From Escherichia phage nepoznato: a stretch of 64,000 bases of DNA. How positions within the stretch are numbered: the stretch's first letter is position 1; each line of letters begins with the position of its first letter. The DNA is taken from sequence record NC_052658.1; one strand, 5' to 3'. This document shows, one piece after another, positions 8,101-23,241 of this stretch. The position numbers and the translations under genes were made by a program. The notes beneath the pieces were generated by a model, which was not told the DNA's origin, ran no database searches, and was given only the letters and a program-made list of their open reading frames with translations.

Positions 8101-8179
8101 TGGAGGCGGGAATCGGATTTGAACCGATGATCTCCAGCATATGAAACTGGCGAGGACGACCAGACTCCTCTATCCCGCT
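8101..8179 (-). tRNA. tRNA-Met or Ile2 (anticodon CAU), CCA encoded
   Basis: Hand-folded cloverleaf: T-arm ATCGG-TTCAAAT-CCGAT, anticodon loop TTCATAT, D-stem GAGG/CCTC; A1-C72 mismatch at top of acceptor stem. Confidence 0.65.
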
Positions 8180-10469: not shown

Positions 10470-10544
10470 TGGTGGCCCTGGCTGGTTTCGATCCAGCTAC
10501 CTATCGGTTATGAGCCGACAGCTCTCCCATTGAGCTACAGGGCC
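10470..10544 (-). tRNA. tRNA-Met or Ile2 (anticodon CAU), CCA encoded
   Basis: Acceptor GGCCCTG/CAGGGCC, D-arm GCTC-AATGGGA-GAGC, anticodon arm GTCGG-CTCATAA-CCGAT, T-stem GCTGG/CCAGC with loop ATCGAAA. Confidence 0.7.
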
Positions 10545-19964: not shown

Positions 19965-20843
19965 ATGTTTGTAAAATCTTTTAAATCCGCTCTGCCTATG
20001 GTTGTTGGTGACAATGCTTCTGTAGCATCCCTTAACAGCATTACAGATATTCCTCTGGAATTTGTAACAGCAGAAGGCTCCCAGTCACACACTATCGGTC
20101 TTGTTCGTTTCGAAGATGACTCTAAATTTGTAAAAGAGTTTTCAGATCTTGAACTGCTTAATGTAGGTCAATCTGTGAAGAAGGTAGATAAAAAGAAAGT
20201 TAAACGTATTCTGAATGAACGTCTAGAAGAAATGCGTCAGGACATGGAGAGCGAAGGTAAAGAGTTTTATGTCGATAAAGAAGTAGTCAAAGCAATGAAA
20301 GAAGATATTGAATTTGCACTATTGCCTGAAACAGAACCTGAAGATTTCTTTAACTATGTTGTCTTGGATAAAACTACGAATCTTCTTTATGTTCTTAATG
20401 GAAGTAAGAAGGTTGCAGAAGAGATTACTTCTTTCCTCCGTTCCGTCCTGGGGACTTTCCCTTCGGTAGGTTTTAGTGTGCACGAAGAAGCTATTGTAAA
20501 AGGTTTTGGTGAATTGCTGGAGAATCACGAAGCAGATCGTATTACTCTCGGAAATTATATCAAAATGGAGGATAGCGAGGGCGTTGTTGTTTGGAGTAAA
20601 GAATCTCTATACGAGTCTAAAGCTGTCGAACTAAAAGAAGATGGTAAAGATGTTGTTGCAATCGGTCTTGAATATGACGGTGTTGTAGATTTTGTAGTGG
20701 ATAAAGAGTTTAAACTTTCTAAACTACGTTTTCCGAAATATTTTGCAGACGAAGAAGGTAGTATTGAAGCTTCAGTCCTTCTGTGCTTCAATGAGATTCG
20801 AGGTCTGATGGAAGATTTAACCAAAGCAACAATCCTTAAATAA
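19965..20843 (+). CDS. RdgC-like recombination-associated protein (putative)
   Basis: 292 aa; ...KEDIEFALLPETEPEDFFNYVVLDKTTNLLYV... resembles E. coli RdgC ...[31 protein letters not shown].... Confidence 0.4.
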   Translation: MFVKSFKSALPMVVGDNASVASLNSITDIPLEFVTAEGSQSHTIGLVRFEDDSKFVKEFSDLELLNVGQSVKKVDKKKVKRILNERLEEMRQDMESEGKEFYVDKEVVKAMKEDIEFALLPETEPEDFFNYVVLDKTTNLLYVLNGSKKVAEEITSFLRSVLGTFPSVGFSVHEEAIVKGFGELLENHEADRITLGNYIKMEDSEGVVVWSKESLYESKAVELKEDGKDVVAIGLEYDGVVDFVVDKEFKLSKLRFPKYFADEEGSIEASVLLCFNEIRGLMEDLTKATILK

Positions 20844-20847
20844 GTTC

Positions 20848-20876
20848 TTGACTTGCGGGATTAGTTATGATATTAT
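20848..20876 (+). promoter_or_regulatory. sigma70-like promoter (TTGACT, 17 bp, TATTAT)
   Basis: cTTGACTtgcgggattagttatgaTATTAT; overlaps the upstream flank of terminator 20877-20905. Confidence 0.45.
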
Positions 20877-20905
20877 GCCTACCTACTTAATGAGGTAGGC
20901 TTTTT
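20877..20905 (+). terminator. intrinsic terminator
   Basis: Hairpin GCCTACCT-acttaatg-AGGTAGGC followed by TTTTT. Confidence 0.6.
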
Positions 20906-20915
20906 AGGAGGCGTT

Positions 20916-21125
20916 ATGAAAAAGATTCTGACAGTCGTTCTTTTAGCTTTTAGTTTCACAGTAGCAGCAGGTCAAATTACTTTAATCTTGTCTGATTCTG
21001 AAGTTAATGGCAACACAAAATATTGCTACTATTCTAACGCTAACCAAGATGAAGTTATAGCAATCCCGAAAAGTCGTCAATGTCCGTATACTAAAACATT
21101 CTCAACAGAGGATGACGATGAATAA
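20916..21125 (+). CDS. small secreted protein (signal peptide)
   Basis: 69 aa; N-terminal MKKILTVVLLAFSFTVAAG signal-like segment; RBS AGGAGG; ends with TAA at 21123-21125 in the same frame as the RNase H-like gene. Confidence 0.4.
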   Translation: MKKILTVVLLAFSFTVAAGQITLILSDSEVNGNTKYCYYSNANQDEVIAIPKSRQCPYTKTFSTEDDDE

Positions 21126-21137
21126 TTAGGGGGAAAT

Positions 21138-22256
21138 ATTAGCGGTTATATTTTAATTAAACCTGAAGATCTTCATTTATATGTCAACGAAGAAACAATA
21201 GCTGCAATTGATTATGATCAGATCGCTTTCCAAGCAGCGTCTGCATTAGAGAAAAGAACAATCATTGCGAAGCACATCCCTTCAGGTGCTCAAAAGGAAT
21301 TTAAAAATAAGACAGAGTTTTGGGGTAAAAGCAAGACTAAAATTGGAGGTTGGCTAGGAGATACAAATGCAGAAAGAGCCTCCAAAAACAAACGTCCCTT
21401 CACAAAGGAAGAGTTCGAAATCATTGATAAGCAATATCCGCCAGAAGATATCGGACACACCTTCCAAGCAGCTAAAACAAAAGTCTTAGGTATTCTAAAA
21501 CATCTACGTTTAGAAAAATATTGCGGAGTTATTGGCGTAGGAAAAACTTTCAGACACGCCTTCAAAATGCCTGTAGAATATAAATCTGAACGATTAGATA
21601 TCAAACCACTCCAGCTTTCAGAAACCAAAGATTATCTTGTGGAGTTCCACAATGGTGATGTTGTTACTGTAATAGAAGCTGATGATGAGTTAGAGAAGTA
21701 TGGTTTCCAAGGTTATAAAGATTATAAAAGAACGGGTAAATTTTCTTATATCGTAGTGTCTATAGATAAAGATAGTTTACATACTCCTAGTATTCTTTTT
21801 AATTTCTATAAAGAAGATGGAGTCTTTAAAAACCCAGATATAATTCTTATTGATGAATCTATTGGCGACATATGGATCGTAGATAAAGGTAAAAAGAAAG
21901 AAGTTAAAGGTTGGGGCAGTTACTGGTTAGCATATCAGATGCTAATGGGAGATAAAACAGATAGTATCCGACCTTATCAAGATTTTGATATTAAGTTTGG
22001 AGATATTACTTGTTTTAATCTTCTTTCAGCTTGTAAAACTCAAGCAGAGCTTTTCCAAACAGTTAAAGATACTTACTACTCATGGTTCCCAGATGGTGTT
22101 AATTTTACTTCTTGGGATGGAGAAGAAGTCCATATGACAACAGATGAATGGATAGAAACAATTTTCCAGTTGGTATACATGAAACGCTGGGATAATGACG
22201 ATACAACATTTGAGAGTATGCTTCAGTCATACATCTCGCAACAGGAGGAAGAGTGA
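21138..22256 (+). CDS. RNase H / flap endonuclease (T4 RNase H-like 5'-3' exonuclease); start codon not canonical
   Basis: The frame of track ORF 21567-22256 is open back to 21126. N-terminal IAAIDYDQIAF matches T4 RNase H ICLIDFSQIAL; also TFRHAFKMPVEYKSER, EADD, SIDKD and LMGDKTDSI. No in-frame ATG, GTG or TTG before 21567. Confidence 0.55.
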   Translation: MSGYILIKPEDLHLYVNEETIAAIDYDQIAFQAASALEKRTIIAKHIPSGAQKEFKNKTEFWGKSKTKIGGWLGDTNAERASKNKRPFTKEEFEIIDKQYPPEDIGHTFQAAKTKVLGILKHLRLEKYCGVIGVGKTFRHAFKMPVEYKSERLDIKPLQLSETKDYLVEFHNGDVVTVIEADDELEKYGFQGYKDYKRTGKFSYIVVSIDKDSLHTPSILFNFYKEDGVFKNPDIILIDESIGDIWIVDKGKKKEVKGWGSYWLAYQMLMGDKTDSIRPYQDFDIKFGDITCFNLLSACKTQAELFQTVKDTYYSWFPDGVNFTSWDGEEVHMTTDEWIETIFQLVYMKRWDNDDTTFESMLQSYISQQEEE

Positions 22257-23212
22257 GCAGATTAACAGAAGAGCAGAAAGCAGATATCCTTAGTATGAGT
22301 GCAGAGGGTATGTCTTCTCGCAATATTGCAGCAATTGTTTTAGGTAGTCCAACAAGAAAAAGCACAGTGAACGATTTCCTTGCACGATTCGGAGCAAGTA
22401 AACAAGAGCCAGTTAAAAAGAAACAACCAGTTATTAAAATTATTGATGTTGAAACTGCACCAGAGATTGCATATACTTTCCGTCGATTCAAAGCCTTCAT
22501 TTCTCCAGATCAAGTAATTCGTAGGGGTTATTTGTTATCTTACTCTTCTGCTGACCTGTATACTGGTGAAGTGGAAGGTAAGAACTTGTCTTCTTATCCT
22601 CTTTTTGATATTGATCATACAGATGATTGGGAGCTTTGCCAAGATCTTTGGAACCTTCTAAATGAGGCAGATGTAGTTGTGGCACACAACGGATACAAGT
22701 TTGACCGTGCATATATTAACCAACGATTTGCATATCATGATATGGCTCCTCCTTCTAACTATGTAGTTGTTGATACATTGAAGGCAGCTAAGAAACAATT
22801 TGCACTTCCTTCCAACTCCCTTAAAGAAATGGGAGCATATTTCGAAACAGAAAGTGAAAAACTGGATAACGAGGGGTTCCCTTTATGGAAAGCATGTTGT
22901 GAAGGTGATCGTGATGCTTTTGAACGTATGCAGATTTACAATGACGGTGATGTTGTTTCACTCCGCGATTTGTATATGAAAATCCTTCCGTGGATTCCAC
23001 AACATCCTAACTTATCCGCTTATTATCCAGATGAGAAGGTCCGTTGTTCTCGTTGTGGCAGTGATCACGTTCACGTTGTTACTGGTAAGCAATACCACAC
23101 TGCGGTAAGTTCTTTCGATATCATTCGTTGTGAATCTTGCGGAGGTTTGTCACGTAGTAGAGCAAACACCAGATCCAAGGATAAACGAGCAGCAACTATC
23201 ATCGGAATCTAA
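22253..23212 (+). CDS. DnaQ-like 3'-5' exonuclease (DEDD family) with C-terminal zinc ribbon
   Basis: 319 aa; Exo I IIDVETAPE, Exo II VVAHNGYKFD, Exo III YNDGD; C-terminal CSRCGS...CESCGG. Confidence 0.55.
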   Translation: MSRLTEEQKADILSMSAEGMSSRNIAAIVLGSPTRKSTVNDFLARFGASKQEPVKKKQPVIKIIDVETAPEIAYTFRRFKAFISPDQVIRRGYLLSYSSADLYTGEVEGKNLSSYPLFDIDHTDDWELCQDLWNLLNEADVVVAHNGYKFDRAYINQRFAYHDMAPPSNYVVVDTLKAAKKQFALPSNSLKEMGAYFETESEKLDNEGFPLWKACCEGDRDAFERMQIYNDGDVVSLRDLYMKILPWIPQHPNLSAYYPDEKVRCSRCGSDHVHVVTGKQYHTAVSSFDIIRCESCGGLSRSRANTRSKDKRAATIIGI

Positions 23213-23218
23213 TAATAA

Positions 23219-23241
23219 GGGAGCTTCTTGCTCCCTTTTTT
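23219..23241 (+). terminator. intrinsic terminator
   Basis: Hairpin GGGAGC-ttctt-GCTCCC followed by TTTTTT. Confidence 0.65.

Follow-up and report, generated by a model that had tools for sequence, protein, structure and literature searches.

A conserved FEN-superfamily exonuclease gene of phAPEC8-like coliphages most likely starts at an AUU codon

Where does a gene begin that offers none of the usual start codons? This question is raised by a nuclease gene of Escherichia phage nepoznato (NC_052658.1), of which a stretch of 64,000 nucleotides, referred to here as the window, was analyzed. The window represents a phAPEC8-like coliphage myovirus (Phapecoctavirus, Stephanstirmvirinae). Here, frame +1 is open from position 21126 to the TGA at 22254–22256, and according to the listing of open reading frames (ORFs) no ATG, GTG or TTG is present before the ATG at 21567. 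Directly ahead lies a small ORF, which ends at a TAA (21123–21125). The codons after this TAA read TTA GGG GGA AAT ATT(21138) AGC GGT TAT ATT TTA ATT, and translation from the upstream ORF through the exonuclease results in 447 codons with a single internal stop. A preliminary description, made from the letters of the DNA alone, had pointed to a nuclease gene without canonical start codon behind an upstream ORF; all coordinates given there are correct, including 21567 as the position of the first ATG, GTG or TTG. The interpretation that we consider probable is that 21138–22256 constitutes one gene for a 372-amino-acid 5'-3' exonuclease/flap endonuclease of the flap endonuclease (FEN, PIN-like) type, which would be initiated at the AUU at 21138, a weak codon holding the output down.

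The leader ahead of the first canonical start codon

The region 21126–21566 comprises 147 codons without ATG, GTG or TTG. Based on the frequency of such codons in 25 long ORFs of the window (4.97%), the probability of a run of this length is ~6e-4, and the longest run free of these three codons within the same 25 ORFs spans 109 codons. Furthermore, when the 54 stop-to-stop frames of the window with ≥150 codons are compared, no other lead comes close, the next one being 75 codons long. The latter was discarded as a comparable case, being antisense to real genes, and the other long open leaders (61828, 59734 and 42721) were discarded as well, being antisense to minus-strand genes or located in intergenic sequence. 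A sequencing error was also excluded. The region 20700–22400 is matched by 63 phage records at ≥95% nucleotide identity, all of them phAPEC8-like myoviruses, and these independent genomes agree, with an amino acid identity of at least 99% across the 147-codon region. The artefactual indel that the preliminary description had taken into account is ruled out by the same records.

The leader clearly belongs to the nuclease. Throughout, residue numbers (D29–D279, V138 and Met148) refer to a 376-residue numbering that starts at 21126. The PHROG_107 profile ('exonuclease') matches the whole protein over residues 14–371 with an E-value of 9e-56; it recognizes the C-terminal part of 229 amino acids alone (E 6e-43) and also the 147-residue leader alone (E 5e-7). 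Among ~5.8 billion proteins, most homologues are full-length with 335–375 amino acids and cover 89–99% of the extended protein, the N-terminal homology included. An alignment of 17 sequences with 32–86% identity displays D29, D31, K153, E184, D186, D214, D216, D276 and D279 as invariant residues. D29 and D31 lie within the leader in the motif IDYDQ and are encoded by GAT TAT GAT at 21210–21218 (+), upstream of the annotated start; this is the invariant Asp-x-Asp of the first β-strand. Structurally, AlphaFold2 predicts one compact domain with a mean predicted local distance difference test (pLDDT) score of 92.5 and a predicted template modeling (pTM) score of 0.85. The leader is integral to this predicted fold and provides its first four β-strands as well as helices, the first strand with IDYDQ being formed by residues 25–29.

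The leader codons are also under purifying selection. Here, seven diverged relatives were compared, which likewise have no upstream canonical start, and the proportion of nonsynonymous differences (pN) amounts to 0.16–0.26 vs. a proportion of synonymous differences (pS) of 0.66–0.81, which is saturated. No stop codon is present in frame, while the two alternative frames contain 9 and 12. A pseudogene is ruled out by the selection, the fold and the invariant residues. The N-terminal 143 codons belong to the exonuclease protein, and this without any canonical start. The earlier statement that the nuclease gene extends about 150 codons above its first canonical start codon is therefore well founded, being borne out by family homology, the invariant aspartates, the fold model and purifying selection.

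The public annotation displays a different picture. Most of the 63 close GenBank records and their gene callers place the start of the exonuclease at the ATG at 21567–21569 (+), which corresponds to Met148 and yields 229 amino acids; in the records opened, 21126–21566 is either empty or filled with spurious small ORFs, and the UniRef cluster of the 229-amino-acid protein has 22 members. Taken literally, this model would mean that only the short product is made, that the N-terminus has been lost and that 21126–21566 is an untranslated remnant. We consider this very improbable. The leader is kept open at 64–78% amino acid identity across lineages whose synonymous sites are saturated, and it holds the invariant Asp pair as well as four β-strands of the predicted fold. 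No Shine-Dalgarno (SD) sequence precedes the ATG at 21567 (cttcaaaATG), and some relatives have Leu or Thr instead of its methionine. In addition, the fragment of 229 amino acids would have only five residues ahead of the catalytic Lys, and half of the PIN core would be missing. Met148 is very likely an internal methionine.

Position of the start codon

The start junction was located in 39 sequences, namely in 38 fetched loci and in the window. All 20 Stephanstirmvirinae-like loci (≥64% identity) as well as the window harbor ATT or ATC before the peptide (S)G[YF]I, and in these loci the codon sits 3–5 nt after AGGAGG or AGGGGG. The 18 rV5-like loci (40–43% identity) split from this group, since the codon before GYP is ATG (8), GTG (6) or TTG (5 loci counted as 4 distinct types), which follow AGGAGG, GGGGGA or GAGGG. 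Two intermediate relatives with 57 and 49% identity contain an SD sequence, 4 nt and an ATT; the starts proposed by gene finders for these two fall inside the SD sequence or are not preceded by one. In the aligned junctions, AUU/AUC occupies the exact position of AUG, GUG or UUG in the outgroup orthologues.

Within the window, the SD sequence AGGGGG is located at 21128–21133 (+) and the proposed initiation codon ATT, which would be read as formylmethionine (fMet), at 21138–21140 (+). Only four non-start codons separate the in-frame stop from this ATT. The arrangement GG[AG]GG plus 4 nt represents the commonest SD spacing of the window (11 of 21 cases), and the 4-nt spacing is common to the ATT at 21138, the ATG at 20916 and the GTG at 22253. 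A GGAGG, GGGGG or GGGAGG element at a distance of 3–5 nt has been retained in every lineage despite the saturated synonymous sites. What would be expected of an AUU/AUC start is found here, that is, no upstream AUG, GUG or UUG, a functional SD spacing and the canonical start position of the orthologues. The spacing, the aligned codons and the unconserved ATG at 21567 with no SD sequence ahead of it together point to the ATT at 21138 as most likely the start codon of the exonuclease gene. This is in line with the preliminary description, which had expected an ATT- or ATA-type codon after AGGGGGA (21128–21134).

The protein of 372 amino acids from this ATT begins with MSGYILIKPEDL. An independent annotation of the related phage ESCO13 (YP_009786567.1) begins with MSGYILIKPEDL at the same ATT, which is the start of the coding sequence (CDS) in RefSeq. 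This protein (UniRef100_A0A1Q1N971, n = 12) follows the same 372-amino-acid model and differs by one residue near the C-terminus; UniRef holds 12 identical Phapecoctavirus entries with this model. It is a database annotation only, and the truncated model is found in nearly all of the remaining 60-odd close genomes. The ESCO13 genome announcement is silent on the start codon (PMC5374246), and literature searches found no paper discussing the start codon of this exonuclease. Since the ESCO13 RefSeq record already contains the CDS from the same ATT, the gene model itself is not new. New are the comparative proof of the start position and the split between AUU/AUC and AUG/GUG/UUG in sister groups, furthermore the extent of the misannotation and the dismissal of two features, the in-frame upstream ORF and a valine at a metal-site position, as meaningful anomalies.

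Several points weigh against a start at 21138 and the role proposed for it. For none of the family members did literature searches yield an N-terminal sequence or data from ribosome profiling or reporters. The PsgM04F lineage has a tandem ATT ATC plus a TTG 12 codons downstream as a possible alternative start, and for the protein P0025 an ATG lies 9 codons downstream, so that the precise start codon may vary from lineage to lineage. The minimum free energy fold partly pairs the SD sequence, which is not significant (z = -1.4). The reason why the weak codon would have been retained is purely inferred.

A neighboring codon could also be considered as the start, because several Ile codons follow the SD sequence. 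Initiation could take place at another near-cognate codon (ATT 21150, ATT 21156 or ATA 21198), or ribosomes that begin at the ATG at 21181, which exists in frame +2, could reach the frame by shifting. Both appear highly improbable. The ATT codons at 21150 and 21156 are 16 and 22 nt away from the SD sequence instead of the usual 4 nt, and their positions drift in relatives between ATT, ATC, ATA, ACA and AAA like those of ordinary residues. The frame of the ATG at 21181 closes after six codons (ATG TCA ACG AAG AAA CAA TAG) and no slippery heptamer is present, whereas the peptide (S)GYILIKPEDLH upstream of this ATG is conserved. A frameshift from any of the out-of-frame ATGs at 21112, 21118 and 21181 was rejected, since their frames end within 2–6 codons and no slippery site is found.

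A proposed weak start and the upstream reading frame

Mechanistically, AUU 21138, which lies 4 nt after the strong SD sequence AGGGGG, would be decoded by the initiator tRNA as fMet. In E. coli, AUU, AUC and AUA initiate at ~1–2% of the level of AUG with Met at the N-terminus (bioRxiv 10.1101/063800), and in another reporter system AUU was 6–8-fold below AUG (PMC3592434). The weak start may be kept to limit the synthesis of a potentially harmful nuclease, similar to the logic described for pcnB. Via an overlap with the following gene, the output of a coupled DnaQ-like exonuclease would perhaps be limited, too. Ribosomes ending at the TAA of the 69-amino-acid ORF, 12 nt away, would probably add some re-initiation, and the in-frame relation of both ORFs would be a coincidence of spacing.

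Confirmed starts other than AUG, GUG or UUG are very rare, and infC and pcnB are the only two confirmed natural AUU genes of E. coli (10.1101/063800). Both resemble the gene of the window, since they are functional genes whose sole possible start is an AUU behind an SD sequence, while orthologues elsewhere contain AUG, GUG or UUG, as described for pcnB in other lineages (10.1101/063800; PMC3592434). By analogy with pcnB, the weak codon may limit the output, and like in infC the start lies a few nt after the stop of an upstream cistron. In contrast to both, the gene described here is a phage gene, AUC is used besides AUU in several lineages, and experimental confirmation exists only for infC and pcnB; moreover, no autoregulatory loop via initiation factor 3 (IF3) is evident. 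The mechanism of a rare start is thus of a known kind, of which this gene is a conserved new example. Being conserved across a phage subfamily, the alternation of AUU and AUC together with canonical codons of the sister group at the same site represents a clean natural system to study why a weak start persists.

The close upstream ORF suggests a stricter version, in which AUU would exclusively or predominantly serve those ribosomes that come directly from the end of the 69-amino-acid ORF at the TAA at 21123–21125. The output of the exonuclease would then be slaved to the translation of this ORF, with little de novo binding of 30S subunits. This would fit to the stop of the upstream ORF, which in every lineage examined lies 8–18 nt before ATT/ATC and abuts or overlaps the SD sequence, and to the tight packing of the three cistrons of the operon (the first two are 12 nt apart, and the last two overlap by GTGA). 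Also, in a reporter with an infC-type junction, AUU yielded double the output if the cistron ahead of it was translated (PMC3592434). However, the rV5-like loci with ATG, GTG or TTG are packed just as tightly, so that the packing reflects the general compaction of phage genomes and is not specific to the weak codon. The conserved strong SD sequence at optimal spacing argues for de novo initiation, and the upstream gene varies, being a methyltransferase in one locus (L042). Obligatory termination-reinitiation is therefore rather unlikely; some termination-reinitiation at AUU is plausible and would supplement initiation at a weak AUU, not exclude it.

The in-frame arrangement itself could also indicate readthrough or recoding of the TAA, by which the exonuclease would become a C-terminal extension of the ORF with the signal peptide. 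Indeed, the window and several relatives (L006, L012–L015 and L019) have both ORFs in frame, and the database protein P0005 (444 amino acids, 48 member sequences) looks like such a fusion. The latter is an artefact, since the contig (Logan SRR30397360_28145, L043 1705–1712) has a TAG at the junction, which the gene caller took as Gln, and translation of the locus does not give the query. Furthermore, two lineages, Justusliebigvirus (L004) and the PsgM04F type (L005), carry the upstream ORF out of frame together with an intact N-terminus of the exonuclease, and one clade (L014–L021) contains two in-frame stops. The stop context is TAA-T, no suppressor is present among the 9 tRNAs of the window, and it would make no functional sense for a DNA nuclease to carry a Sec signal peptide. 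Readthrough is hardly credible, and the fusion was rejected on the TAG junction of P0005 and the two out-of-frame lineages. The preliminary description was right that the exonuclease lies in frame behind the TAA of a signal peptide ORF in the window, but because two lineages have this ORF out of frame the relation is incidental and carries no conserved meaning.

A more far-reaching possibility is that the AUU/AUC start, retained over the entire history of the Stephanstirmvirinae, acts as a regulatory switch in addition to a throttle, by which the pair of exonucleases would rise when IF3 proofreading of start codons relaxes during infection, with a phage tRNA-Met(CAU) at 8101–8179 as possible agent. 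If true, this would represent a phage-encoded reprogramming of start codon choice via this tRNA; we regard it as improbable. Three G:C pairs in the anticodon stem mark bacterial initiator tRNAs and are inspected by IF3 and the 30S P site. The tRNA at 8101–8179 (minus strand) displays two initiator-like features, with A1 unpaired opposite C72 and A11:U24 in the D-stem, and does not contain the three G:C anticodon-stem pairs. It is conserved at 94–100% identity in Phapecoctavirus, Justusliebigvirus and phi92. A second 'tRNA-Met' (CAT) at 10470–10544 (minus strand) has a fully paired acceptor stem. Presumably it resembles tRNA-Ile2 of E. coli, which reads AUA after lysidine modification, and it is probably a tRNA for Ile instead of Met.

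Protein family, operon and annotation

The full-length gene, 21138–22256 (+), encodes 372 amino acids followed by a TGA. Neither Pfam nor NCBIfam matched the protein of the window, and a sequence search of the PDB with the family profile was empty; a fold search was therefore needed to place it. Here, scores of 14.1 for the FEN of M. smegmatis, 13.8 for E. coli ExoIX, 13.4 for T5 exonuclease and 13.1 for T4 RNase H were obtained, and Foldseek agrees with the placement as FEN-type fold. The model contains the PIN-like α/β core that T5 FEN, ExoIX, T4 RNase H and FEN1 have in common, and the sequence contains the carboxylate cluster (first-strand Asp, ExD, DxD and GDxxD) as well as the catalytic Lys of the YK motif. 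Identity to the solved structures of T5 D15 flap endonuclease, E. coli ExoIX and T4 RNase H is only 12–16%. On sequence level, one of the 17 family members matches PF02739 (5_3_exonuc_N; E 5.4e-6), and hhalign against the T7 gene 6 exonuclease (gp6) resulted in a probability of 88% and an E-value of 2.8e-6 over the catalytic core. The rV5 orthologue, ORF94 ('exodeoxyribonuclease'), which was annotated as SP6-exonuclease-like, is 38% identical to the protein of the window over the N-terminal part. As judged from these matches, the closest relatives are the T7 gp6/SP6-type and rV5 ORF94-type 5'-3' exonucleases of the FEN superfamily, which belong to the same PHROG_107 family and have the motifs DxD, YK, EADD, DKD and GDxxD in common. 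In comparison to T7 gp6, the protein described here is ~70 residues longer, with insertions at ~45–125 and 225–265, and in contrast to the T7 gp6, SP6 and rV5 ORF94 genes its start is ATT rather than ATG.

For T4 RNase H, homology starting from IAAIDYDQIAF near 21198 had been proposed. This holds only at the level of the fold; in sequence, hhalign with a verified query (100% identity in T4-like records) was not significant and covered a 16-residue stretch around the first Asp only (probability 0.7%, E 0.079).

The same description had noted a Val at the Asp position of a GDKGK-type metal site. This Val138 is present (GTA, 21537–21539, +) and aligns in hhalign with Asp86 of T7 gp6 in 'FTDSVNWRK', the second Asp of metal site 1, a position that we take to correspond to Asp68 in the GDKGK motif of T5 FEN. 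The metal sites were assigned from the motifs and from the hhalign alignment with T7 gp6, not by coordinate superposition. The second metal-site Asp is thus absent from the protein of the window. However, the column contains V, K, I, S, G or E and is non-acidic in nearly the whole rV5/phAPEC8 family, members with an ordinary ATG start included. It is therefore no evidence of decay, Val138 being a trait of the family and not a lesion.

The local gene order comprises an rdgC-like gene, a promoter/terminator pair, the 69-amino-acid ORF, the 'putative exonuclease', a DnaQ-like 3'-5' exonuclease and a terminator. A sigma-70-like element at 20848–20876 (+; TTGACT, 17 nt and TATTAT, preceded by TG) agrees with the consensus at 10 of 12 positions and, by this match only, is a candidate promoter of the three-gene operon. 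A similar element (TTGACT ... TAATAT) was read by eye upstream in Klebsiella phage phi1_175008. The putative promoter directly adjoins the intrinsic terminator of the rdgC-like gene at 20877–20900 (+), a G+C-rich hairpin (GCCTACCT...AGGTAGGC) followed by TTTTT, which is annotated as terminator in the Schickermooser record. Transcripts from this promoter are predicted to begin within the hairpin and would therefore escape termination.

The 69-amino-acid ORF (20916–21125, +) starts with ATG 4 nt after the SD sequence GGAGG. Its N-terminus (MKKILTVVLLAFSFTVAAG...) is signal peptide-like, it contains two Cys and an acidic tail, and it matches PHROG_4641, a family of unknown function. Such a protein sits in an operon of DNA metabolism and precedes the exonuclease throughout the Stephanstirmvirinae.

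The consequences of the start for the public records are considerable. A core nuclease of replication and recombination is truncated in most public genomes of widely used therapeutic coliphages (phAPEC8-like and Justusliebigvirus): records of Phapecoctavirus give 229 instead of 372 amino acids, and in Justusliebigvirus an internal GTG drops the first catalytic Asp motif. Truncated models miss half of the catalytic core and mislead homology searches, structure prediction and comparisons of gene content. For PaulScherrer (MZ501100.1, L004 1297) and PsgM04F (L005 1213), the records give an internal GTG or TTG as the start of the gene, and the annotated protein of PaulScherrer begins inside the IDYDQ-V motif without the first catalytic Asp pair. 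The same misannotation is probably present in other Justusliebigvirus records.

Downstream, the gene for the DnaQ-like 3'-5' exonuclease (22253–23212, +) starts with a GTG 4 nt after the SD sequence AGGAGG. This GTG overlaps the stop of the FEN-like exonuclease as GTGA (22253–22256), and both exonucleases are probably translationally coupled. An intrinsic terminator at 23217–23237 (+), which is also annotated in a database record, closes the operon. In some records, the DnaQ-like gene is begun at a downstream ATG.

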